A DNA stretch of 64,000 nucleotides from an uncultured bacterium (lineage in GTDB: Bacteria; Actinomycetota; Acidimicrobiia; Spongiisociales; ZC4RG35): positions 225,039-289,038 of the forward strand of contig CAVWBT010000003.1 in assembly GCA_963753285.1 (NCBI GenBank), read 5' to 3'. A program made the position numbers and the translations under genes. Below the pieces are notes generated by a model, which was not told where the DNA came from, ran no database searches, and saw nothing but the letters and a program-made list of their open reading frames with translations. Positions 11,846-57,501 of the stretch are shown here, piece after piece; position 1 is the stretch's first letter, and every line of letters starts with the position of its first letter.

Positions 11846-13894
11846 TCAGGCCTCTCGCGCCGCGCGAGCCTCTGCCAGCGCGCGGAGGGTGATGTGGGAG
11901 TCGACTCCGATCTCGCTGGGGACCTTCTTCCAGTCGATCCCGGGGCCGAGCTTCCAGGCGAGTGAATCGTCGGCCAGGAGCACCTCGAGGATCTCGTCGA
12001 TGCGGAACTGGAGGTCGGGATCCTCGACGGGGGTGATGGCCTCGACCCGACGGTCGAGGTTGCGGGGCATCAGATCGGCCGAGCCGATCAGGTACGTGCG
12101 TTCTCGACCCCGGGCTCCGAACCGGAAGACACGAGAATGCTCCAGGTAGCGCCCGACGATCGACCGCACGGTGATGTTGTCACTCATCCCGGGGATCCCC
12201 GGGATGAGACAGCAGATCCCTCGAACGATCAGGTCGACCCGGCAGCCGGCCTCCGAGGCTGCGTAGAGCTCTTCGATCAGCCGCTCGTCGACCAGCGAGT
12301 TCATCTTCAAGGTGATGAGCCCGTCGCTGCCGCGTGCGGCCTCGTCACGGATCATTTGGGTGATCCGCGACCGGAACGAGTTCGGCGAGACCAGCAGCTT
12401 CCGGTAGGTGGTCTGCTGGCTGTAGCCGGTCAGGTAGTTGAACAGGTCCGACAGATCGGCGCCGATCGCGGGGTCGGCGGTCAGCAGCCCGAGGTCCTCG
12501 TAGATTCGGGCGGTGGCGTCGTTGTAGTTGCCCGTGCCGATGTGGGCGTAGCGCCGGATGCCCGCCTCCCCGTCGTCACGGACCACCAGCGCGATCTTCG
12601 TGTGCGTCTTCAGGCCGATCACGCCGTAGACGACGTGGACGCCCTCGTCTTCGAGGCGCTGGGCGAACTCGATGTTCCGCTCCTCGTCGAATCTCGCCTT
12701 CAACTCCACGAGCACGACGACCTGCTTGCCCTCCTTCGCGGCGTACATCAGCGATTGGATGATCGGGGAGTTCGCCGAGGTGCGATAGAGCGTCTGTTTG
12801 ATCGCGAGCACGTTCGGATCGTGAGCCGCCTGGTCGATGAACGCTGCAACCGACGAGGTGAAGGAGTCGTACGGATGATGGACCAGCAGGTCGCCTTCGC
12901 GGATCGCGTCGAAGATCCTCGCCGGTCCCTCGGCCGTGGGGGCAAGGCGCGGCTGGGTCACCCACGACCAGCGATCGTGCAGGAGATCCGGCCGCTCCAT
13001 CTCGGTGAGCACCCCCAGCCCGGACATGTCGAGCGGACCGTCGACGACGAGCACCTCGTTCCTCGTGAGGCTCATCTCCCGGATCAGCAGATCGAGCACG
13101 TCGTCGGTCATGGTCGGAGCGACTTCGAGCCGGACGACCCGGCCGAACCCGCGCCGTGTCAGCTCCGATTCGATCGCTGCGAGGAGATCGTCGCCCTCCT
13201 CTTCCTCGATCTCGAGATCGGCGTTGCGGGTAACCCGGAAGACGTGGTGCGCAACCACTTCCATGCCGGGAAACAGCATGTCGAGGTGGGAGGCGATGAC
13301 CTGTTCGAGTGGCACATAGCGCTCGCCGTCGGGGAGCACGACGAAGCGGGACAGGATCGGCGGGACCTTCACGCGGGCGAATCGGGTGACGCCGGTGTCG
13401 GTATTGCGAACGAGCACCGCCAGGTTCATCGAGAGGTTCGAGATGTATGGAAAGGGGTGGGCGGGGTCGACCGCGAGCGGTGTGACGACGGGGAACACCC
13501 GCTCACGGAAGATGTCGTCGAGGTAACTGCGGTCCTCGTCGTCGAGGTTGTCGTAATCGTCGAGGGCGATCCCGGCGGATGCCAGTGCGGGGGCGACGTC
13601 TTCACGGAACGTTCGATGGGCGCGTGCGTACTGGCGCGCCGTCTCCTCGCGGATCAGCAGCAACTGTTCGGTCGGCTCGAGACCATCGGGTGAGTTGCCG
13701 TGCGCTCCGTACGCTTCGAGCTCCATCAGCCCGGCGACGCGCACCATGTAGAACTCGTCGAGATTCGAGGCCCAGATCGAGAGGAATCGAGCACGCTCCA
13801 GCAGTGGCAGATTCGGGTCCTCGGCCAACGCCAGGACACGGCTGTTGAAGTCGAGCCAGGACAGCTCCCTGTTGCGATATCGATCGGTCCCCAT
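11846..13894 (-). CDS. ppk: Polyphosphate kinase 1
   Basis: 682-aa ORF with PPK N-domain (NRELSWLDFNSRVL), the catalytic His region and two PLD-like C-terminal domains; CATAAT hexamer 8 nt upstream of the ATG. Confidence 0.95.
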   Translation of the reverse strand: MGTDRYRNRELSWLDFNSRVLALAEDPNLPLLERARFLSIWASNLDEFYMVRVAGLMELEAYGAHGNSPDGLEPTEQLLLIREETARQYARAHRTFREDVAPALASAGIALDDYDNLDDEDRSYLDDIFRERVFPVVTPLAVDPAHPFPYISNLSMNLAVLVRNTDTGVTRFARVKVPPILSRFVVLPDGERYVPLEQVIASHLDMLFPGMEVVAHHVFRVTRNADLEIEEEEGDDLLAAIESELTRRGFGRVVRLEVAPTMTDDVLDLLIREMSLTRNEVLVVDGPLDMSGLGVLTEMERPDLLHDRWSWVTQPRLAPTAEGPARIFDAIREGDLLVHHPYDSFTSSVAAFIDQAAHDPNVLAIKQTLYRTSANSPIIQSLMYAAKEGKQVVVLVELKARFDEERNIEFAQRLEDEGVHVVYGVIGLKTHTKIALVVRDDGEAGIRRYAHIGTGNYNDATARIYEDLGLLTADPAIGADLSDLFNYLTGYSQQTTYRKLLVSPNSFRSRITQMIRDEAARGSDGLITLKMNSLVDERLIEELYAASEAGCRVDLIVRGICCLIPGIPGMSDNITVRSIVGRYLEHSRVFRFGARGRERTYLIGSADLMPRNLDRRVEAITPVEDPDLQFRIDEILEVLLADDSLAWKLGPGIDWKKVPSEIGVDSHITLRALAEARAAREA

Positions 13895-13912: not shown

Positions 13913-14283
13913 GGAGGGCTCGCTCGCTGCGCTTCGCGGCGTGTCATCGCCTTCGGCGGCGTGTCTTCCGGCCTATGGGGCCGGAGCGTGTCTTCAAGCC
14001 TGGCGGCTTGAGCGTGTCTTCGCCTTCGGCGGCGTGTCCGCGACCTCATGTCGACAGCGCGCCATGAGGCGGATCGAACGACGCGTCGACTCTGAGCGCA
14101 TCGCAATGCTCGAAGCGACGCAGGTCGCGGAGAAGCTCACGAAGTGAAGATACGCTCACGGAGTGAAGAAACGCTCTGCGGAGGCCCCCTGGGGCCGGAG
14201 CAGAAGAGACGCTCCGAGCCACTGGCGAGGAAGACACGCTGCCAAGCGAAGCGAGCTCAGCGAGCGAGCTCAGCGAGCGAGGC
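13913..14283. repeat. 371-bp structured intergenic element with two degenerate inverted arms carrying multiple GCGTGTCTTC-like decamers in opposite orientation
   Basis: Left arm 13913-14040 has about five forward decamers (GCGTGTCTTC, GCGTGTCATC, GCGTGTCCGC); right arm 14141-14283 has four reverse-oriented degenerate copies (GAAGACACGC, GAAGATACGC, GAAGAAACGC, GAAGAGACGC). Each arm carries a CCGGCC-N5-GGCCGG mini-palindrome; termini are GGGCTCGCTCGCTG and CAGCGAGCGAGGCC (13 of 14 complementary). The centre is the palindrome CCTCATG-N12-CATGAGG. Confidence 0.5.
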
Positions 14284-14881
14284 CACCGAGCAGGAAGCGC
14301 TCGAGTTCGGCGGCGACCTCGGGGTAACGGGCTTCGGGGCTCTCGGCGCTGATCAGGATCCGGGCGGCCGACATGATCGTGTCCTGCATGAACCGGCCGG
14401 CGATGTCGACGGCCATCGGACGCAGCTCGCCTCGTTCCACGGACACTCGATAGGCGCCGACCATGTCCATGGCGAGCTCGGAGTGTGCTGCGCGGATCCG
14501 CTCCTGGGCCTCCGACGACAGCCGGGGCAGCTCGCGGTGGAGGATCAAGCCCATCACCGGATCGGAGACGACGAAGTGCACAGTCGACTTCGCGAGCTCC
14601 ACGAGGCGCTCCGTTCCCTCCGTGGAATCAAGGCGTGCGATCAAGTCATCCACGACCCCGGGCAACCGATCCTCGACCAACGAGGCGATGAGGTCGTCTT
14701 TGTCTCGGAAGTACTCGTACAGCGTTGTCCGACCGATGCCTGCCTCGTGAGCGACCTCGCCGAGTGAGATGTCGGCCGACCCGATCTCCTCGAGCAGACT
14801 GTGGGTCGACTCGAGGATCTCTCGACGCGTCTTGAGCTTGTGCGCCTCGATGTTCTCGGCTCGAATCCTCGGCATATCCAC
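14270..14881 (-). CDS. TetR/AcrR-family transcriptional regulator
   Basis: N-terminal HTH (ILESTHSLLEEIGSADISLGEVAHEAGIGRTTLYEYFRDKDDL); the last codons overlap the right terminus of the inverted-repeat element. Confidence 0.85.
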   Translation of the reverse strand: MDMPRIRAENIEAHKLKTRREILESTHSLLEEIGSADISLGEVAHEAGIGRTTLYEYFRDKDDLIASLVEDRLPGVVDDLIARLDSTEGTERLVELAKSTVHFVVSDPVMGLILHRELPRLSSEAQERIRAAHSELAMDMVGAYRVSVERGELRPMAVDIAGRFMQDTIMSAARILISAESPEARYPEVAAELERFLLGGLAR

Positions 14882-23116: not shown

Positions 23117-23737
23117 GTGAACATGGATCACGACATCACAATCGCCCTGCAGCAGCTCTCTCGTATGCGGGGCATGAACGCCCTGTACCACCGGCAGTTC
23201 TTCTCCGACGTCCGCTTCACCACGGTCACCGTTCTCGGACTGTTCGTTGCAGGTGCGGCCGTCGATCGATGGCTTTTCCTGGCCGTCCCCTTCGTTGCAC
23301 TCCTGGGTGCGGCCTCGACCGCCTTCGACGCCTCATACCTCATCTTCTCCCGGCAGTACGCCACCAGACTCGAGCGCTTCATCAACGAACGGACCGGCTC
23401 GAACGTCCTGGTCGCCCACGAGCTCGAAGACGCCTACCTCTTCCCGATCGATCGCACCAAGATCGTGACGCTCCGCTTCGGAACCGACTTCAGCTGGTTC
23501 GGCTTCATGACCGCGTTCTACACCCTCCTCGGTGTCGCCGCATACTTGACCGGTCTCGCCCTGTCACTCGATGTCCTCTCGGACTCGGGGCGGGCCGACG
23601 TCGGGTTTGCCTACCTCGTGACACTCGCGGCGTTCACCCTGGGTTCACTGGCCGTCGGCGCTTGGTGGTTCGTCGGCGGGACCGGTGAAGCGCGCCTCAA
23701 GACCGTGCTGGATCACCGGTTCGGGGCCACTCGATGA
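23117..23737 (+). CDS. Hypothetical membrane protein
   Basis: 206-aa ORF with four hydrophobic helices; tightly packed between whiB and corA, whose start overlaps its stop (ATGA). Confidence 0.5.
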   Translation: MNMDHDITIALQQLSRMRGMNALYHRQFFSDVRFTTVTVLGLFVAGAAVDRWLFLAVPFVALLGAASTAFDASYLIFSRQYATRLERFINERTGSNVLVAHELEDAYLFPIDRTKIVTLRFGTDFSWFGFMTAFYTLLGVAAYLTGLALSLDVLSDSGRADVGFAYLVTLAAFTLGSLAVGAWWFVGGTGEARLKTVLDHRFGATR

Positions 23738-24705
23738 TCGTCGACGCCGCCCACTACCGAGCCGGTCACCGAGAGCCGGATCCGTTCGAGCTCGACGGCG
23801 CCCTGGCATGGGATCGTCGATCGGGGTCCTTCTCCTGGATCGGGTTGTACGAGCCCGACGAGGCGGAGTTCGATGCGGTCCGAAACGAGTACGACCTCCA
23901 CGAACTCGCCGTCGAGGATGCCGTCAAGGCGCATCAGCGACCCAAACTCGAACGGTATGACGAGACGTTGTTCGTCGTGCTCAAGCCCGCCATCTACGAC
24001 GACACGACCGAGACCGTGGAGTTCGGCGAGATCCACCTGTTCATCAACGACTACTTCGCGGTGGTCGTGCGCCATCGGAAGTCGAGCCAGCTCGTCGATG
24101 TGCGGCACTCACTGGAGGCCGACGTCGAAACGCTGCGGCTCGGGCCCGGTTCCGTTCTCCACGCGATCACCGAACACGTCGTCGACAACTACCTCGTCGT
24201 CCTCGACGGTCTCGAACTCGACATCGCGCAGGTCGAGGGCGACGTGTTCGCCGACTCCGACGTGGTTCCGACCGAGCGGATCTATCGGCTGCTGCGGCAG
24301 GTGATCAACTTCTCGCAAGCCACGATCCCCCTGGTCGAGCCGCTCGACCGGCTCTCCAAGGGAAGCTTCGTCGGAGTGCACGCTGACTTGCGTGAGTATT
24401 TCCGCGACACCCACGACCTCCTCATCAGGGTGATCGATCGCATCAATGCCCTGCGGCAGCTGCTCACCTCGATCCTCGACGCCAACCTCACCCAGGTCAC
24501 GGTCCGGCAGAACAACGACATGCGAAAGATCTCGGCGTGGGTGGCGATCGCCGCCGTCCCGACGCTGCTGGCCGGTGTCTGGGGCATGAACTTCGACTCG
24601 ATGCCCGAATTGAGCTGGAACGTCGGGTACCCACTCGCGATTCTGGTGATGGTGTCGATCAGCGGGCTTCTCTACCGCCGTTTCAAGGCGAGCGGCTGGC
24701 TGTGA
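23734..24705 (+). CDS. corA: Magnesium/cobalt transporter CorA
   Basis: C-terminal two TM helices with the GMN motif (VWGMNFDSMPE) and a basic C-terminus. Confidence 0.85.
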   Translation: MIVDAAHYRAGHREPDPFELDGALAWDRRSGSFSWIGLYEPDEAEFDAVRNEYDLHELAVEDAVKAHQRPKLERYDETLFVVLKPAIYDDTTETVEFGEIHLFINDYFAVVVRHRKSSQLVDVRHSLEADVETLRLGPGSVLHAITEHVVDNYLVVLDGLELDIAQVEGDVFADSDVVPTERIYRLLRQVINFSQATIPLVEPLDRLSKGSFVGVHADLREYFRDTHDLLIRVIDRINALRQLLTSILDANLTQVTVRQNNDMRKISAWVAIAAVPTLLAGVWGMNFDSMPELSWNVGYPLAILVMVSISGLLYRRFKASGWL

Positions 24706-24870
24706 TTCTGCGGGGACTGAATCCCCAGCACCCCAACGCCCAAGGCCTTGCCACCCACAGGCTTCCCGGCAGCAACAGCCCTCTCGTCCGCCGAGTCGAC
24801 CGAGGACCGTCTCACAACACACGCCCCGGACCAAGCGGCGCTCCAACACCCCGCCAAACCCGCCAAGCGA

Positions 24871-24925
24871 ACGTAGGACGTAGAACGTGGAACGTGGAAC
24901 GTGGAACGTGGAACGTGAACGTAGG
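24871..24925. repeat. Heptanucleotide tandem array (ACGTRGA)x8; on the minus strand this reads (CACGTTC)n
   Basis: Units ACGTAGG, ACGTAGA, ACGTGGA x4, ACGTGA, ACGTAGG read directly; the array ends 9 nt before the tldD start codon and abuts a TAGGAT hexamer. Confidence 0.9.
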
Positions 24926-24934
24926 ATCACTGCC

Positions 24935-26374
24935 GTGTTCGATGTAGCGACGGCAGCGGTGGAGGGGGCGATCGCCGCCGGCGCGACCTACGCCGATGCC
25001 CGGGTGATGGGACGCAGGATCCGGTCGATCGATGTGCAGAACGGCGACGTCCAGTCGATCGGGCTCTCCGAAACGATCGGCGTCGGGGTGAGGTCGCTGG
25101 TCGGTTCGTCCTGGGGGTTCCAGGCCACGGACAGGCTCGGCACCGCCGATGCCGCTCGCGCCGGCGCAGAAGCCACCGCGATCGCACGGGCGAGCGCACG
25201 AGTGCCGGGCCCGCCCCTCGTTCTCGCCGATGTGGAAGCCCGCGAGGACACCTTCCGCACGGAGGTCGTGGAACATCCCTTCGACGTTTCGCCCGAGGAA
25301 CAGGCGGGGCTTCTCGTCGAATCGACGCGAATCATGTTGGAAGAGCCGAACGTCGCAATCGCGACCGGACAGCTCGGCTTCTGGGACGTCGAGATGTGGC
25401 TGGTGTCGTCCGAGGGGCACCGCATCCATCAGAACCTGGTCCACTCGGGCGGAGGGCTCCAGGCGATGTCGATCGGTGACGGCGAGACCCAGGTGCGCAC
25501 GTATCCGCAGTCGCGGGTGCACTACGAGTCGGCCGGCTACGAGGCGATCCGCAAATGGGACTACCTCGGCGAGGCTCCGCGAATCGCGGCCGAGGCCGCT
25601 GCGCTGCTGACGGCGGCGGAGATGGAAGAGTGCGAGAAACCCTTGATCCTCGAGGGCTCCCAACTCGCCCTCCAGATCCACGAATCGGTCGGGCACGCGA
25701 TCGAACTCGACCGCATCCTCGGCTGGGAGGCGGCATTCGCCGGCACGTCACACCTCGAACTCTCGAGACTCGGCACGCACCGGTACGGGTCGGACCTCAT
25801 GAACATCACCGCGGACGCCACCCTCCCCGGTGCACTCGGCTCGTTCGGGTACGACGACGAGGGAACGCCGGCACAGTGCGTGCCGATCGTCACCGGCGGC
25901 ATCTGGGTGGGCGTGTTGTCGGGGCGGGACTCGGCGTCGATCGCAGGTCTCCCTGCCGGCGGCATGGTCAGAGCTGACGGATTCGACCGACTCCCGATGG
26001 TCCGGATGACGAACGTCGGCCTCCTGCCGGGAGACTCCTCGCTCGAGGAGATGATCGCCGCAACCGACGACGGCATTCTGATGGCGACCAACCGGTCATG
26101 GTCGATCGACGACCGCCGACTCAACTTCCAGTTCGGGTGTGAGATCGGGTGGGAGATCAAGAACGGAGAACGGGGTCGGATGCTCAAGAACCCGACCTAC
26201 ACGGGCATCACCCCCCGGTTCTGGGGCACACTCGACATGCTCGCCGGCGCCTCCGAGACCGTGTTCTGGGGCACGCCCAACTGCGGCAAGGGCCAACCGG
26301 TCCAGGTGGGGCGGACCGGACACCCTGCCATGCCGGCGCGGTTCTCCCGAGTGCGGATGGGCGTGAGAGGATGA
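24935..26374 (+). CDS. tldD: TldD family metalloprotease (peptidase U62)
   Basis: TldD/PmbA fold signature, HExxxH-like HESVGHAIELD, C-terminal GGIWVGVLSG; start set at GTG 24935 (TAGGAT hexamer 7 nt upstream) rather than GTG 24887 inside the repeat array. Confidence 0.85.
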   Translation: MFDVATAAVEGAIAAGATYADARVMGRRIRSIDVQNGDVQSIGLSETIGVGVRSLVGSSWGFQATDRLGTADAARAGAEATAIARASARVPGPPLVLADVEAREDTFRTEVVEHPFDVSPEEQAGLLVESTRIMLEEPNVAIATGQLGFWDVEMWLVSSEGHRIHQNLVHSGGGLQAMSIGDGETQVRTYPQSRVHYESAGYEAIRKWDYLGEAPRIAAEAAALLTAAEMEECEKPLILEGSQLALQIHESVGHAIELDRILGWEAAFAGTSHLELSRLGTHRYGSDLMNITADATLPGALGSFGYDDEGTPAQCVPIVTGGIWVGVLSGRDSASIAGLPAGGMVRADGFDRLPMVRMTNVGLLPGDSSLEEMIAATDDGILMATNRSWSIDDRRLNFQFGCEIGWEIKNGERGRMLKNPTYTGITPRFWGTLDMLAGASETVFWGTPNCGKGQPVQVGRTGHPAMPARFSRVRMGVRG

Positions 26375-31638: not shown

Positions 31639-32229
31639 TCAGGGACGGTTCGGCTGACCCTTGGACGTTTCCGTGCTGGACTCGTCGTCGCTCGAGTTGT
31701 CGTCCGACTTGCCGTTGTTCGACTTGTCGTCCGACTTGCCGTTGTTCGACTTGTCGTCCGACTTGCCGTTGTTCGACTTGTCGTCCGACTTGCCGTTGTT
31801 CGACTTGTCCTTGGCGTCCTTGGCCGCCTTGGCCTCGTCCGACTTGCCCTTGAGCGTCTCGTACAGGCTCGACAACTCCGACAGCTTCGAGCCTGTGTCC
31901 TTCTTCAGCTGGCCGGGCACTTCGCGTTCTAGCAACGCCTCGTGCACTTCCTGGGCATTCGCGGGACCCTGTCCCTCGCCCTGACGGTTCGAGTTCTCGT
32001 GCTTGGCGACCCAAGCGTCGTAGACGCCGAGCGCCTCGATCAGGCCCTCGTCGACGACGATCGTGTCACCATCGCCTGCAAGCTCGGACGCAGCCGTCAG
32101 ACCGAGGGCCACGCCCTCGACGGCGCGATCGAAGTTCGGGGCGGGCTGTGCGCTCGCCTGGGCGGCGGACACGAGCACGAGAAGTGCTCCGGCGAGCATG
32201 GAGGCGATGAGGCGACGGATACTGATCAT
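31639..32229 (-). CDS. Secreted low-complexity protein with (KSDDKSNNG)n tandem repeats
   Basis: Signal peptide MISIRRLIASMLAGALLVLVSAAQASA; C-terminal half Lys/Asp/Ser/Asn-rich with four to five identical 9-aa repeats. Confidence 0.6.
   Translation of the reverse strand: MISIRRLIASMLAGALLVLVSAAQASAQPAPNFDRAVEGVALGLTAASELAGDGDTIVVDEGLIEALGVYDAWVAKHENSNRQGEGQGPANAQEVHEALLEREVPGQLKKDTGSKLSELSSLYETLKGKSDEAKAAKDAKDKSNNGKSDDKSNNGKSDDKSNNGKSDDKSNNGKSDDNSSDDESSTETSKGQPNRP
31699..31806. repeat. Four perfect tandem copies of a 27-bp unit (GTCGTCCGACTTGCCGTTGTTCGACTT) within the coding sequence
   Basis: Read directly; the in-frame 27-bp (9-codon) period encodes KSDDKSNNG on the minus strand. Confidence 0.9.
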
Positions 32230-32270
32230 TTCGTCAGACAAGTACAAACCTCACTCTGAGTGTTACACCT

Positions 32271-42822: not shown

Positions 42823-42839
42823 GGCTCGCTGGCGCTCGC

Positions 42840-42881
42840 ACGTCTCACGTCGCACGTCTCACGTCTCACGTCTCACGTTCG
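42840..42881. repeat. Heptanucleotide tandem array (ACGTCTC)n: ACGTCTC, ACGTCGC, ACGTCTC x3, ACGTTCG
   Basis: Read directly; begins 18 nt after the permease stop and lies 48 nt upstream of the TAGGCT hexamer preceding galT. Confidence 0.9.
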
Positions 42882-42941
42882 AAGACTTGACACCTGAGAG
42901 CCCACGTGATCGACACCGGCGCGGCAGGTAGGCTCCGCGCC

Positions 42942-45064: not shown

Positions 45065-45065
45065 C

Positions 45066-45100
45066 CCGTCTCACGTCTCACGTCCCACGTCCCACGTTGA
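45066..45100. repeat. Heptanucleotide tandem array (ACGTCYC)n: CCGTCTC, ACGTCTC, ACGTCCC x2, ACGTTGA
   Basis: Read directly; begins 2 nt after the gnd-like stop, 72 nt upstream of the TAGCCT hexamer preceding purC. Confidence 0.85.
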
Positions 45101-45184
45101 ACGGCGCTCGAGGAGTGCGGCGGAGGCGGATCCGGTCGCGAAGGCTCCCGGAGGCGCCGGTACCTCACCGCTAGCCTGACCTCG

Positions 45185-54532: not shown

Positions 54533-54666
54533 CAGTTGGCCTTTGGCTCTTGGCTGCGGGCATCGCATCGACGCCAGGGGCCTCAGGTCGCTTCCAGATC
54601 GAACCCTCCGACAGGGACGCAGAGATGGGGCGCTGTCGTGTCAGCTGAATGGCGGATGGCCACTGG

Positions 54667-55908
54667 CTAGTCGGTCTCGTACTTGTCCCGATAGAGCTGA
54701 TCGGCGGAGCCGACCCAATCGTCTCGTTCGATCCGGCCGGGGAAGGCATCGAGAGCGAGTGTGACGGTCGCGATGTCCTCGGGCGTGAGGTTCGCCACCT
54801 GGAGGAACGAGGTGATCCCCATGCTCTTGAGGAGCTTCTCGATCTTCGGGCCGACACCGTGGATCTTCTTGAGATCGTCGTTCGTGACGTCCCGACCCCC
54901 TGCGGTTCGGGTCGCGATCTCCTTCACCTTCTCCACAGCCACATCCCGTTCGGCTACGGGTTCGACGTTCGATGCAGGAGCCGGCTCGGGGGCAGGAGCC
55001 GGCTCCGCGGCAGGTCCCGGCTCGGGGGCCTCCGGTTCGCCCTGAGCCGCCACCTCTTCCTCCTCCGACCCGGACTCTTCGGGTTCCGCCGCCGGGGTCT
55101 CCTCGGTGACGATGGCGACGTGTTCGACCGGCTCGGACACTGCGACGTCCTCCGGCTCGACCGCACTGGAACCGCGCTCGTCCGACACGACCGACGACGC
55201 GGCGAGCTGCTCGCGCAGGGCGGCCAGCTCCTCGGACTGTCGAGTGATGGTCGATTCGAGTCCGGCGATCGTCGATTCCGATGCGTCGAGTTGGTGCTGG
55301 AGATCGAGTGCTCCCGCTGCCCCGTCTCGCAGCGTGTTGATGGTGTCAATCGCCGCTTCGAGCTCGACCGTTGCCCGGTCCGTCACCTTCTTCGCCTCGG
55401 CGGCACGGAGCCTTGCGTCTTCCTTCGCCCGCTCCGCCTCGACCAGGCGATCTTGGGCAGAGGTCAGCCTGTCTCGCAGGTCGTCGACGGTGCCGAGCTG
55501 GAGACGGAGATCCCCGGCCTCCTTGAGGGCGGCGTCGAGCTGACGCTGGCGATCGCCCAGCTCCGCGCTCAGACGATCGGCGTCTTCGGCACGCTTCCGG
55601 ATGTCGGCCACCGAGACGTCGAGCTCGCTCTTCTCGCCCTTCAGGTTGTCGAACCGGCCCTTCAGTTTCTCGAGCTGCTTCTGGAGGTCCTTGCGCTCGT
55701 CCTTGACCTCACGGATCTGCACGCGCAACGGTTCGAGCTGCGCCTCGGCCTCGTCGGCACGACGGCGTTGGGTGTTGATCTGATCGTCGGTGTGACGGAG
55801 TCGTCGAGCAAAGTCGTCGTTGAGCCGCTTCGACCCGACTCGATCCCACACGAACCAGCCGATCCCGATCCCGACAACCAGTCCGACGATGAACAGCACG
55901 ACTTCCAC
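54667..55908 (-). CDS. Membrane-anchored coiled-coil protein with a Pro/Glu-rich linker and a C-terminal helix-hairpin-helix-like domain
   Basis: N-terminal TM (VVLFIVGLVVGIGIGWFVW), approximately 230-aa heptad-rich segment, PAPEPAPA linker, C-terminal KKIHGVGPKIEKLLKSMGITSFLQVANLTPEDIA. Confidence 0.65.
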   Translation of the reverse strand: MEVVLFIVGLVVGIGIGWFVWDRVGSKRLNDDFARRLRHTDDQINTQRRRADEAEAQLEPLRVQIREVKDERKDLQKQLEKLKGRFDNLKGEKSELDVSVADIRKRAEDADRLSAELGDRQRQLDAALKEAGDLRLQLGTVDDLRDRLTSAQDRLVEAERAKEDARLRAAEAKKVTDRATVELEAAIDTINTLRDGAAGALDLQHQLDASESTIAGLESTITRQSEELAALREQLAASSVVSDERGSSAVEPEDVAVSEPVEHVAIVTEETPAAEPEESGSEEEEVAAQGEPEAPEPGPAAEPAPAPEPAPASNVEPVAERDVAVEKVKEIATRTAGGRDVTNDDLKKIHGVGPKIEKLLKSMGITSFLQVANLTPEDIATVTLALDAFPGRIERDDWVGSADQLYRDKYETD

Positions 55909-56049
55909 TTGACAGTCCTCCCGCAGGCAATCCGAGCGCGTCTTCTGCGATCCCCCGCCCGTAGACGAGTCGAAAGGGACTGTAGGCGGTCGACTCGGGC
56001 TTCGTGTAGGCGATGTGACACCACTTCACCGACGTCATACCCTGCGGCC

Positions 56050-57501
56050 GTGACCAGCAGACCGGTGGCGGCGCCCACCAGTGTCCTCTCCAGAGAGCTC
56101 CTTCCCGCCTCGACCGCGATCTTCTTGACGGTGGCGCTCGCCGCGTTCGAAGGACTGGCGGTCGCGGCGGCACTGCCGGAGGTCGCTGCCGACCTGGGAT
56201 CGGTCGCGCTGCTGCCGTGGGTGATCACGTCGTTCCTCCTCACGTCCGGGGTCGCGACCATCGTGTCGGGTCGGCTGATCGACACGATCGGCGTGAGAAC
56301 GATGTTCCGGGTCGCCGTGATCGTGTTCGCAGGCGCCGGGGTTCTGGCGGCGTTCTCACCGTCGATGGAGGTCATGATCGCGCTCCGAGCGGTGCAGGGA
56401 GCCGGGTCCGGCATGGTGATCGCCGTCGGATTGGCCGCCGTCTCGTTGATCTTTCCACCGCATCTCACGGGGAGGGCGTTCGCCGCCAACTCGACGGTGT
56501 GGGGGGTGATGGGCGTGGCCAGCCCTGCCATCGCGGCCGTGATGCTGACCCAGCTCGATTGGCGGTGGATCTTCCTGATCAATCTGCCGCTCGGCGTGAT
56601 CTCACTGGCCGCCGGCTGGAGAGTGATGCCGCAGAGTCAGGAGCGTTCCGAACACAAACCGATGGACTACGTCGGGACCGGGCTGGCGTTGGTCTTCTCC
56701 GGGGCGGTGCTGTTCGCCGTCAACGACCTCGAGTGGTTCTCGCTCGTGTGGCTGGTGGTCGCGATCACCTCGGCCTTCGCGTTCTATCGGAGAGCCGGAT
56801 CTCGTGAAGCCCCGCTGGTCGAACGGCGGTATCTCTCACACGCACCGTTCGCTCCGCTGGCGTTCGCAATCTCCCTGCTCATCACCGGAGCGATCGCTCC
56901 GAATGCATTCGTTCCGCTGTATGTGAGTGCCGGGCGGCTGGCGTCGGAAGCGACGACGGCATGGTCGGTCCTGTTCTTCACCGTCGGCTGGACGGCCGGC
57001 GCCAACGTGTCGTCGCGGCTGCTCGACACCCGAACCCAGCTCACTGTGATCCGGTACGGGTTCGCAAGCACCATCCCCTCGCTCGTCATCACGGCGATTG
57101 CAGGCGCGCTCTCGTCGACGATCGGTGTTCTCTTCGCTGCGTTGTTCGGTGTCGGCGTCGGTGTCGGCCTCGCGACGAATGCCTCGTTGACGCTGCTGCG
57201 CGATGTCAGCGCACCGCAGGAGATCGGGCGGTCGACGGCAGCCCACCAGTTCTTCCGCAATCAGGGGTTCGCGTTCGGATCGGCGATCGGCGGCGCAGCA
57301 CTCTTCGCCGTCGTCGCCTCGGCCGTCGGCGACCCCGAGCTGGTGAGGAACGTGCTTGCCGGCGACTCGGTGTCCGTTGCCGGCGAGGTCAGTGCGGCGG
57401 TCGAAACCGGGTTCGCTCTGTCGGCGGCGATCGGTGCCGGGATCTCGGCGCTCGGGCTCATCGCATTGAAGCGAGTCGAAGCGAGCACCGAGGCGCAGTG
57501 A
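56050..57501 (+). CDS. MFS transporter (12-14 TM)
   Basis: Hydrophobic repeats with MFS motif region (GRLIDTIGVRTMF); GTG start at 56050 is a guess within a 950-aa artefactual ORF. Confidence 0.78.
   Translation: MTSRPVAAPTSVLSRELLPASTAIFLTVALAAFEGLAVAAALPEVAADLGSVALLPWVITSFLLTSGVATIVSGRLIDTIGVRTMFRVAVIVFAGAGVLAAFSPSMEVMIALRAVQGAGSGMVIAVGLAAVSLIFPPHLTGRAFAANSTVWGVMGVASPAIAAVMLTQLDWRWIFLINLPLGVISLAAGWRVMPQSQERSEHKPMDYVGTGLALVFSGAVLFAVNDLEWFSLVWLVVAITSAFAFYRRAGSREAPLVERRYLSHAPFAPLAFAISLLITGAIAPNAFVPLYVSAGRLASEATTAWSVLFFTVGWTAGANVSSRLLDTRTQLTVIRYGFASTIPSLVITAIAGALSSTIGVLFAALFGVGVGVGLATNASLTLLRDVSAPQEIGRSTAAHQFFRNQGFAFGSAIGGAALFAVVASAVGDPELVRNVLAGDSVSVAGEVSAAVETGFALSAAIGAGISALGLIALKRVEASTEAQ

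Follow-up and report, generated by a model that had tools for sequence, protein, structure and literature searches.

We found three tandem arrays of ACGT-core heptanucleotides in the window, that is, in the whole 64-kb stretch of DNA that was analysed, and we consider it reasonably probable that they are simple sequence repeats (SSRs, or microsatellites) of the long-SSR (LSSR) class of Mrazek, without a role as switches or regulatory devices. All three are intergenic and flanked by co-directional genes (corA/tldD, ABC permease/galT and 6PGD-like/purC). Array 1 lies in the corA-tldD spacer, with the following features around it.

23734-24705, + strand: corA-like Mg2+ transporter gene upstream of tldD (Pfam), TGA stop at 24703-24705
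24712-24726, + strand: small hairpin GGGGA-ctgaa-TCCCC just 3' of the corA stop (sequence reading)
24806-24826, + strand: CCGTCTCACAACACACGCCCC, candidate decayed C-rich (CACGTCT-type) partner arm, by likeness to the 5' arm of the L551/L552 hairpin
24871-24925, + strand: array 1, eight ACGT-core heptamers (sequence reading, TRF, pattern search), namely ACGTAGG (24871-24877), ACGTAGA (24878-24884), four ACGTGGA (24885-24912), ACGTGA (24913-24918) and ACGTAGG (24919-24925)
24922-24927, + strand: TAGGAT, likely -10 element of a leaderless tldD promoter (orthologue conservation, TANNNT enrichment)
24935-26374, + strand: tldD, a TldD/PmbA metallopeptidase of 479 aa (Pfam, homologues)

TRF places array 1 at 24869-24922, with a period of 7, 7.9 copies, 91% matches and a score of 80. 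Its units are homogeneous inside the array and degenerate at the edges, and all are 7 nt long apart from the 6-nt ACGTGA; on the - strand they read CACGTTC. The last unit overlaps the first 4 nt of TAGGAT, which is followed by 7 nt (cactgcc) and GTG 24935. The gene order corA-tldD-pmbA-purA-purD is retained in relatives. The small hairpin behind the corA stop, a predicted terminator, is also present in the related locus L470, where its stem is folded. Further downstream, CCGTCTCACAACACACGCCCC might conceivably be the remnant of a CACGTCT-type partner arm.

Judged from its homologues, the start codon of tldD is GTG 24935 and not GTG 24887, at which the longest ORF begins within array 1: TldD homologues measure 479 aa in almost all cases, and their N-termini read MFD or VFD. 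Because the start is at 24935, array 1 lies outside tldD, in non-coding DNA. TAGGAT followed by 6-7 nt and a start codon was found in the window and in ten related loci (L121, L122, L123, L470, L551-L555 and L484), among which the upstream flanks of tldD diverge or are unrelated while the -10 hexamer stays. Across the window, 10 of 46 genes have a TANNNT hexamer 6-8 nt before the start, where any other offset yields about 0.5, and 29 of 66 TldD loci carry one 5-8 nt before the start. Owing to this orthologue conservation and window-wide enrichment, the assignment of TAGGAT as the -10 element of a leaderless tldD promoter is well supported. No conserved -35 element was found at these leaderless promoters, nor was a canonical sigma-70 promoter with a -35.

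A preliminary description of this DNA had reported eight heptamers running into TAGGAT, 7 nt before GTG 24935 as the best start, with the geometry of a leaderless promoter and an automatic ORF call beginning inside the repeats at 24887. These statements agree with the sequence, the TRF result, the length of the homologues, the longest ORF, the TANNNT enrichment and the spacing of 6-7 nt that all close orthologues keep. It had also proposed that a change in unit number would alter the 5' coding frame or shift the promoter geometry, and neither is supported: the array is outside the coding sequence, and since it fills the region from about -64 to -10 of the tldD promoter, with no conserved -35, interior gain or loss of units would leave the core promoter unchanged.

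The other two arrays and the predicted promoters downstream of them are located as follows.

42839-42878, + strand: array 2, CACGTCT, CACGTCG, three CACGTCT and CACGT (TRF, sequence, pattern search)
42929-42934, + strand: TAGGCT, likely -10 element of leaderless galT, 7 nt before ATG 42942
45065-45097, + strand: array 3, CCCGTCT, CACGTCT, two CACGTCC and CACGT (TRF, sequence, pattern search)
45172-45177, + strand: TAGCCT, likely -10 element of leaderless purC, 7 nt before GTG 45185

TRF finds array 2 at 42839-42878 (CACGTCT, 5.7 copies, score 73) and array 3 at 45067-45097 (4.4 copies, score 48), the matches over the three window arrays ranging from 91 to 95%. Array 2 begins 16 nt past the ABC-permease stop and leaves 50 nt between its 3' end and the galT -10; array 3 follows the 6PGD-like stop codon without a gap. 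The distance from array to -10 is 0, 50 and 74 nt in the three cases, and orientation varies too, the CACGT units lying on the + strand in arrays 2 and 3 and on the - strand in array 1. Since TAGGCT stands 7 nt before ATG 42942, the galT start is probably 42942; at the same place L127 has TAGGTT, 6 nt and GTG, and L128 has TAAGGT, 6 nt and ATG. Before purC, TAGCCT with 7 nt and GTG is also found in L128 and L550. All three arrays stand upstream of putative leaderless genes, a point against a merely neutral reading, but with n=3 the chance probability is roughly 0.01-0.06.

The arrays consist of head-to-tail tandem units beyond chance, as is expected of LSSRs, whose units measure 1-11 nt. A two-unit pattern with at most one mismatch had 18 matches in the window versus 7.2 +/- 3.1 in shuffled sequence, a number that none of 100 shuffles reached, and all 12 exact two-unit matches fell inside the three arrays. 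No further strong period-7 array was found in the 64-kb window. With the arrays masked, the three spacers had only chance matches of 7-8 nt in common, and a MITE or REP element around the arrays is ruled out, as their flanks have no shared sequence. DnaA boxes (TCCAC), to which a likeness exists only in array 1, were rejected by eye. The two further CACGTYY arrays of the preliminary description, with array 1 in the opposite orientation, are indeed present at 42839-42878 and 45065-45097. Its notion of a genome-specific family rather than a one-off is right as to the family and wrong as to the genome, given that such arrays occur also in L470, L551-L555 and L123, and CACGTNN in many phyla.

Homologues of array 1 were limited to one clade, made up of the window, L470, L551 and L552, with 8, 4.7, about 5 and about 5 copies, respectively, and with the unit variants GGAACGT, GGGACGT (that of L470) and GRGACGT. 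The four lineages that share a G-rich array abutting TAGGAT have only about 78-85% DNA identity. In the sister lineages L123, L122/P0004 and L121, TAGGAT or TAGAGT is kept without array 1, and a single GAAACGTAGGAT or CAACGTAGAGT stands at its position in sister lineages. Unrelated heptamers were also found in the corA-tldD spacer: CACGCCA in L123, CGGAGAT and CTTCCGC in L556-L558, CGACCTG in L472, TGGTGTC in L492 and CTGCCTT in L495. Between L551 and L552, the C-rich arm of the spacer differs in length by exactly one 7-nt unit. Across the four same-species samples L552-L555 the arrays are identical (L552 and L553 have 99.0% DNA identity), as is the P0004-lineage spacer across the three samples L556-L558, in both cases in consensus assemblies. 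The comparison of copy number that the preliminary description had advised brought out variation between species and none among the four L552-L555 assemblies.

The sites of arrays 2 and 3 have turned over as well. At the array 2 site, L127 has no array and L128 a degenerate CACGC version. At the array 3 site, L126 has GAGGTTC CAGGTTC CACGTTT and L550 (91.4% DNA identity) has CAGGTTC/GGGGTTC units, in which the 7-nt period is preserved and the ACGT core is lost. Both copy number and unit sequence have thus changed at the same locus between relatives, as is characteristic of LSSRs. Contigs L124, L125, L554 and L555 begin inside arrays, most likely because short-k-mer assemblies break at repeats, and were not counted as evidence of polymorphism. 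The CACGT core recurs in all three arrays of the window as well as in those of L470, L551-L555 and L123; that all three strong window arrays and those of close relatives share it speaks against a purely motif-blind origin. A genome-specific motif preference is typical of the heptanucleotide SSR class.

Period-7 repeats are widespread beyond the window. In 593 kb of Acidimicrobiia DNA, 7 was the commonest tandem-repeat period (found in 16 of the 36 arrays that had 3.5 copies or more), and none of 18 heptamer arrays with at least three copies lay inside a strong ORF. The three window arrays and these 18 therefore have non-triplet units confined to non-coding DNA, as LSSRs do. Among the 120 genome loci listed, period 7 accounted for 191 of 238 arrays with at least 3.5 copies, with mostly unrelated motifs; gene calls in these loci came from a crude ORF/GC3 script whose starts are unreliable, so start-codon distances were not interpreted. 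CACGTNN arrays occurred in many phyla among the matches listed, and among these their orientation relative to the strand of the flanking gene had no bias (28 same, 28 opposite). In viral contigs, an imperfect control, CACGTNN arrays were found at 15 loci versus 54-112 for four composition-matched control heptamers, which were 3.6-7.5 times more frequent. A universal CACGT-specific factor is rejected, the viral-contig controls being commoner and the matched genomes full of heptamer arrays with other motifs. A search of the full 64 kb with Rfam covariance models gave no match at gathering score. Because there is no strand bias (28/28), both orientations occur in the window and no Rfam match was obtained, a strand-specific RNA element (a Rho site, CsrA-like GGA sites or HutP-like UAG spacing) is likewise rejected.

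We infer that replication slippage in the non-coding spacers of this Acidimicrobiia lineage generated the arrays and would keep their units homogeneous, and that the arrays are nearly neutral. The tldD array would most likely have expanded from a proto-repeat adjacent to the promoter, in an ancestor shared by the members of a small clade; concerted evolution would since have altered its copy number and the sequence of its units. Its position next to a real leaderless -10 may be tolerated because these promoters would depend on the -10 only. Gain or loss of units would not alter the core promoter, and expression should change little, if at all. Since the core promoter would be unaffected by unit number, the tldD array would be neither a conserved regulatory device nor a phase-variation switch.

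A different reading is suggested by L551-L555, where the whole 71-78 nt corA-tldD spacer consists of (CACGTCT)3-4...(GRGACGT)4-5 in inverted orientation and folds into a 29-bp stem, strongly compared with shuffles (RNA MFE of -56.2 kcal/mol and z of -7.4 in L552; -44.0 and -5.0 in L551). Inverted heptamer clusters also occur in L128 and L556-L558. The arrays might be arms of hairpin-forming inverted repeats that serve as terminators or insulators before the next leaderless promoter, the tldD array being a surviving 3' arm whose C-rich counterpart may have left a remnant at 24806-24826; the placement of arrays 2 and 3 right behind stop codons would fit. We nevertheless consider this unlikely. 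Array 1 has no partner and its region folds less stably than shuffled sequence (z +2.76), arrays 2 and 3 lack an inverted partner too (z -0.35 and +0.79), L470 and L123 have single arrays, the small hairpin that the window and L470 have behind corA is a different one, and there is no U-tract, termination being a prediction. Slipped-strand hairpins from the palindromic ACGT core were also rejected, as the folds of single-stranded DNA gained nothing over dinucleotide-shuffled controls (z -0.1 to -1.9). Alternatively, a putative lineage-specific protein could bind the arrays, one dimer per ACGT heptad, so that copy number would tune the leaderless promoter. The shared CACGT core and an array that adjoins the -10 throughout a clade of four lineages are consistent with such sites. 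As for precedent, there is a protein that binds contiguous 7-bp heptads, four or more of them and in either orientation (PMC9499535), and heptad number can affect promoter activity (bioRxiv 10.1101/2021.05.14.444153; Nostoc, 10.1101/2022.06.06.494920). This appears quite unlikely in view of the loss of the core at the homologous array 3 site (L550, L126), the varying distance to the -10 and orientation, the sister lineages that keep the promoter without an array or with unrelated heptamers, and the lack of a common function of tldD, galT and purC. The persistence in four lineages of a G-rich array abutting TAGGAT is an observation against neutrality: selection, and not slippage renewing the repeat, could be what has kept it. 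That this array has been kept since the ancestor of the genus-level clade for an action on the leaderless promoter, as a putative heptad operator or as a hairpin terminator or insulator, is in our estimate distinctly improbable. In the operator variant, contiguous heptads would be read by an ACGT-recognising protein; in the hairpin variant, an inverted C-rich array would pair with it, the 3' arm overlapping the promoter. If it were true, heptamer microsatellites would be raw material that these genomes repeatedly recruit for intergenic control elements.

Phase variation, which the preliminary description had raised, would make array 1 a contingency locus in which frequent slippage switches or grades tldD expression. 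Copies do differ between related species (8, about 5, 1 and 0), L551 and L552 are one unit apart in the C-rich arm, and in H. influenzae, where strains have 13-38 units, heptamer tracts upstream of genes are an accepted means of phase variation (PMC2651432). We hold this to be very improbable, however. The tract lies neither in a reading frame nor between a -35 and a -10; it is outside the coding sequence and upstream of the -10, across the whole -35 region, where a change in unit number would not alter core promoter spacing. Arrays vary between species and are identical in the four same-species samples of a relative, as is the spacer in L556-L558; the neighbours tldD, galT and purC are housekeeping genes, not surface, virulence or restriction-modification genes; and eight units are few beside known switching tracts. 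Formation of G-quadruplexes by the G-rich strand, modulating transcription as proposed for the GGGNATC heptamers of Xanthomonas and Nostoc, is hardly credible here. The L470 array (GGGACGTGGGTCATGGGACGTGGG) is a canonical G3N4 motif and the placement between aligned ORFs is as in PMC4692102, but runs of G do not exceed GG in array 1, GG is absent from the G-rich strand of array 2 (AGACGTG), and GGG occurs no more than three times in array 3, so that no window array offers at least four tracts of at least three G; the orientation rule of PMC4692102 is also reversed in all three.

Read as heptanucleotide SSRs, the arrays would bring the Acidimicrobiia and an ACGT-core motif into the circle of lineages rich in heptanucleotide microsatellites; to our knowledge, neither the Acidimicrobiia nor this motif has an earlier LSSR description. 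One locus would also display a whole life cycle, from proto-repeat through expansion, unit homogenisation and inverted pairing (the 29-bp hairpin) to decay. For annotation, the repeat of array 1 yields a false upstream tldD start (24887 instead of 24935), and leaderless TANNNT promoters would serve about a fifth of the genes in these genomes, with the galT start probably to be corrected to 42942.

The preliminary description knew of no described heptamer system of this kind, yet counterparts exist, among them heptanucleotide long SSRs (PMC4679880; PMC4692102) and the heptamer operators of SARPs (PMC5930380). The latter, in Streptomyces, share with the window arrays the heptamer units beside promoters and the setting in high-GC Actinobacteria (PMC5930380). 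They differ in having 4-bp spacers and an 11-bp period, whereas the window units are contiguous with period 7, and SARP or PhoP-type operators were rejected by eye on this ground. The ribbon-helix-helix protein omega (ParB of pSM19035) binds contiguous heptads, direct or inverted, next to promoters and needs at least four (PMC9499535), with which the geometry of array 1 is compatible; its heptads serve plasmid partition and copy-control promoters, unlike the chromosomal housekeeping genes here. Heptamer tracts in promoters whose unit number differs between isolates are known from hmw1A/hmw2A of Haemophilus influenzae (7-bp repeats; PMC2651432, citing Dawid 1999) and from ctxAB of Vibrio cholerae, where TTTTGAT heptads are associated with ToxR/H-NS (bioRxiv 10.1101/2021.05.14.444153). 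Those tracts, which vary within species (13-38 units), govern genes for surface or virulence functions, whereas the window arrays adjoin housekeeping genes, do not separate promoter elements and do not vary within species in the few samples of relatives.

Heptamer arrays elsewhere are intergenic, between aligned ORFs and beside housekeeping genes, variable between close species and, in these sources, of no known function (PMC4692102; PMC4679880). The GGGAATC and GGGGA(C/T)T repeats of Xanthomonas and Nostoc (Rehm et al. 2015, PMC4692102) resemble the window arrays in lying between co-directional ORFs near stop and start codons, in their neighbours from general metabolism, in varying in length and sequence between close species and in the possibility of inverted pairs; phase variation was judged unlikely for them. 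They differ in orientation to the nearest ORF, which is opposite, and in G3-4 tracts that form G-quadruplexes, with four units preferred, which window units mostly cannot do. The TAACTGA repeats of marine Beggiatoaceae (MacGregor 2015, PMC4679880) and those of Nostoc recF/recO (bioRxiv 10.1101/2022.06.06.494920) are similar in that one heptamer dominates per genome, in arrays of 2-6 or more units, many of them a few nt upstream of starts, including those of essential genes. They stand in 5' leaders that lack ribosome-binding sites, with a post-transcriptional role proposed; the window arrays, by contrast, would not be part of the downstream mRNA, because the downstream genes appear leaderless. 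According to Mrazek (2007), as summarised in PMC4679880, no class of long SSR is more abundant in prokaryotes than the heptanucleotide repeats, and the genomes richest in them include those of three Actinobacteria. The density in the window is modest by comparison (3 arrays per 64 kb), and the features given for LSSRs (Mrazek, Guo and Shah 2007, via PMC4679880) are those of the window arrays: head-to-tail 7-nt units, an intergenic position, several arrays per motif per genome and a phylogenetically scattered occurrence, with slippage as the proposed origin.

Array 1, the run of ACGT-core heptamers 5' of tldD, consists of ACGTAGG (24871-24877), ACGTAGA (24878-24884), four copies of ACGTGGA (24885-24912), a 6-nt ACGTGA (24913-24918) and a final ACGTAGG (24919-24925), which overlaps the hexamer TAGGAT (24922-24927); 7 nt then precede GTG 24935, so that unit order, overlap and gap all read back as in the preliminary description. 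Tandem Repeats Finder places this array at 24869-24922 (period 7, 7.9 copies, 91% matches, score 80), and it confirmed the two further arrays reported with the same core on the opposite strand: array 2 upstream of galT (42839-42878, CACGTCT, 5.7 copies) and array 3 upstream of purC (45067-45097, 4.4 copies). A two-unit pattern with at most one mismatch matched 18 times in the window vs 7.2 +/- 3.1 in shuffles; the three arrays account for all 12 exact matches. Each array sits between co-directional genes (corA/tldD, ABC permease/galT and 6PGD-like/purC). Comparison of these spacers found no common sequence beyond the arrays themselves, a search of the window gave no Rfam match, and single-stranded DNA folds of the arrays were unremarkable.

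The longest tldD ORF does begin inside array 1 (GTG 24887), as had been observed. Because TldD homologues, drawn from Acidimicrobiia metagenome bins, are almost all 479 aa with an MFD or VFD N-terminus, we place the start at GTG 24935 and array 1 in non-coding DNA. TAGGAT lies 6-7 nt 5' of the start codon in every close orthologous locus (L121, L122, L123, L470, L551-L555 and also L484), with unrelated flanks. Across the class, TANNNT occurs 5-8 nt upstream in 29 of 66 TldD loci, often as hexamers that do not resemble a Shine-Dalgarno site (TACGCT, TAGCCT, TACGAT), and the remaining loci carry GGAGG-type sites. In the window, TANNNT precedes the start by 6-8 nt in 10 of 46 genes vs about 0.5 per offset elsewhere, so roughly one-fifth of the genes look leaderless from their sequence. 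Examples of such starts are:

14875, minus strand
27795
31581, minus strand
35266, minus strand
36547
42942, ATG of galT, after TAGGCT
45185, GTG of purC, after TAGCCT
53408
60012

The galT start is likely ATG 42942 rather than 42906. No common -35 was visible across the leaderless promoters compared, and a consensus scan also gave no match. The conserved orthologue hexamers and the TANNNT enrichment before window starts make TAGGAT a well-supported predicted -10 element of a leaderless tldD promoter, bearing out the original proposal.

It had also been suggested that gain or loss of a unit would shift promoter geometry or change the 5' coding frame. With +1 at 24935, array 1 occupies about -64 to -10, and a unit added or removed in its interior keeps -10 to about -50 the same, displacing only the DNA beyond by 7 bp. 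Promoter geometry would be unaffected, no -35 being detectable, and the reading frame is untouched because the array lies outside the coding sequence. A phase-variation switch acting on tldD through unit number is thus very unlikely, and the window arrays lack defining features of the contingency-locus class.

The gene order corA-tldD-pmbA-purA-purD is conserved in relatives. In a neighbour-joining tree of TldD, the window, L470, L551 and L552 form one clade, with L123, L122 (grouped with lineage P0004) and L121 outside; these taxa share only 78-90% DNA identity. Among the loci in this tree, a G-rich array abutting TAGGAT occurs only in that clade:

window: 8 units, GGAACGT
L470: 4.7 units, GGGACGT
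L551 and L552: about 5 units, GRGACGT

The corA-tldD spacer holds a lone GAAACGTAGGAT in L122 and CAACGTAGAGT in L556-L558, further samples of P0004; either is a plausible proto-repeat from which array 1 would have expanded. In other lineages this spacer carries heptamers unrelated to array 1, namely CACGCCA x10 in L123, CTTCCGC x3 and CGGAGAT-type x8, roughly inverted, in L556:722-916 (same in L557 and L558, with a TAGAGT -10 hexamer 7 nt before the tldD GTG), CGACCTG in L472, TGGTGTC in L492 and CTGCCTT in L495. At the array 3 site, L550 (91.4% DNA identity to the window) has a block of similar length that repeats every 7 nt, in part every 14 nt, but is built of CAGGTTC/GGGGTTC units, and L126 is similar; the 7-nt period survives without the ACGT core. 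Array 2 is missing in L127 and degenerate in L128. Copy number, the comparison called for at the outset, differs between related species but is identical among same-species samples of relatives: arrays match in all four samples L552-L555, as do spacers in the three samples L556-L558, and the arrays look stable within species. The corA call in L553 (461-1422) is split into two ORFs (60 and 260 aa), possibly through a frameshift or assembly error; overall, L553 and L552 share 99.0% identity, with a single 10-nt gap. Four contigs assembled from short reads of different samples (L124, L125, L554, L555) start inside a heptamer array, 67-73 nt 5' of tldD; such arrays most likely break assemblies and may for that reason be under-represented in metagenome bins.

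In L551-L555, from species whose TldD has 91% identity with that of the window, two inverted heptamer arrays make up the whole corA-tldD spacer of just 71-78 nt (L551:1427-1503; L552:1420-1503; also L553-L555). C-rich CACGTCT x3-4 directly follows the corA stop, and the inverted G-rich array runs into TAGGAT. The pair is predicted to form a 29-bp stem (RNA MFE -56.2 kcal/mol, z -7.4 in L552; -44.0, z -5.0 in L551) whose 3' arm reaches into the -10; exactly one 7-nt unit, in the C-rich arm, separates L551 from L552. This predicted hairpin resembles a terminator or insulator that would separate corA from the leaderless tldD promoter. That array 1 is itself an arm of a hairpin terminator is unlikely, however: it has no inverted partner, nor do arrays 2 and 3, and its region folds worse than 200 of 200 shuffles (z +2.76). 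Judging by sequence, 24806-24826 may possibly be a decayed partner arm.

We scanned the genomes of 185,579 species for four CACGTNN units. Among the matches listed were Chloroflexota, Acidobacteriota, Bacteroidota, Gemmatimonadota, Verrucomicrobiota, proteobacteria and a few Actinomycetota. By crude gene calls, these arrays did not favour either strand with respect to adjacent genes (28 same, 28 opposite, 14 convergent, 9 divergent). Array abundance is not CACGT-specific, since viral contigs contained 15 CACGTNN loci, whereas four control heptamers identical in composition had 54, 78, 82 and 112. In 120 genome loci among the matches listed (866 kb), 238 tandem arrays reached 3.5 copies or more, 191 of them with period 7, and the 92 non-seed period-7 arrays were mostly of unrelated motifs. 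Period 7 was also commonest in 593 kb of Acidimicrobiia DNA (16 of 36 arrays; next most frequent periods, 4 each), where motifs were lineage-specific, a few genomes held most arrays and none lay inside a strong ORF. Some genomes of Verrucomicrobiota, Acidobacteriota, Bacteroidota and Desulfobacterota (L014, L059, L069, L048, L081 and others among L001-L120) carry many unrelated heptamer motifs at about one array per kb, with 8 arrays in 8 kb in L014 and single arrays of up to about 28-33 units (L081, L048).

The window holds other repeats. The spacer at 13930-14270, between a polyphosphate kinase gene (11846-13894, minus strand) and a TetR-family gene (14270-14881, minus strand), is a large interrupted inverted repeat cluster, in which about five copies of GCGTGTCTTC, spaced 20-26 nt apart, precede about four of the reverse complement GAAGACACGC. 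The 202-aa protein of ORF 31639-32247 (minus strand) has a hydrophobic N-terminus, gave no match in a Pfam search and carries KSNNGKSDD x4 close to its C-terminus, specified by a 27-nt repeat at 31692-31852 (4.4 copies, 98% identical). In an MFS transporter ORF (54649-57501, plus strand), the Pfam MFS_1 match is limited to residues 491-877, and the long N-terminal extension contains an 18-nt repeat at 54974-55029 (3.1 copies).

A regulatory role has been demonstrated or proposed for other heptamer tracts, among them those of hmw1A/hmw2A in H. influenzae (PMC2651432), the ctxAB TTTTGAT heptads (bioRxiv 10.1101/2021.05.14.444153), the omega heptads of pSM19035 (PMC9499535) and SARP operators (PMC5930380). 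The window arrays lack the defining features of SARP operators, and a putative protein-binding heptad array is a quite unlikely reading of array 1; they likewise lack those of the G4 class, and a G-quadruplex is extremely improbable. We consider that array 1 is best explained, with reasonable probability, as a heptanucleotide microsatellite that belongs to a lineage-specific motif family, is driven by slippage and is tolerated beside a promoter for which the -10 alone suffices. TAACTGA arrays lie directly 5' of start codons (MacGregor, PMC4679880). The GGGNATC heptamers of Xanthomonas and Nostoc lie between aligned ORFs, near stop or start codons and beside general-metabolism genes; their length and sequence differ between close species, phase variation was judged unlikely, and their function is unknown (Rehm et al., PMC4692102). 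According to Mrazek 2007, as cited in PMC4679880 and PMC4692102, heptanucleotide repeats are the most abundant and a phylogenetically scattered class of long simple sequence repeats, with polymerase slippage as the proposed cause, and three Actinobacteria are among the ten richest genomes; as far as these citing papers relay that description, the arrays of the window behave in the same way.
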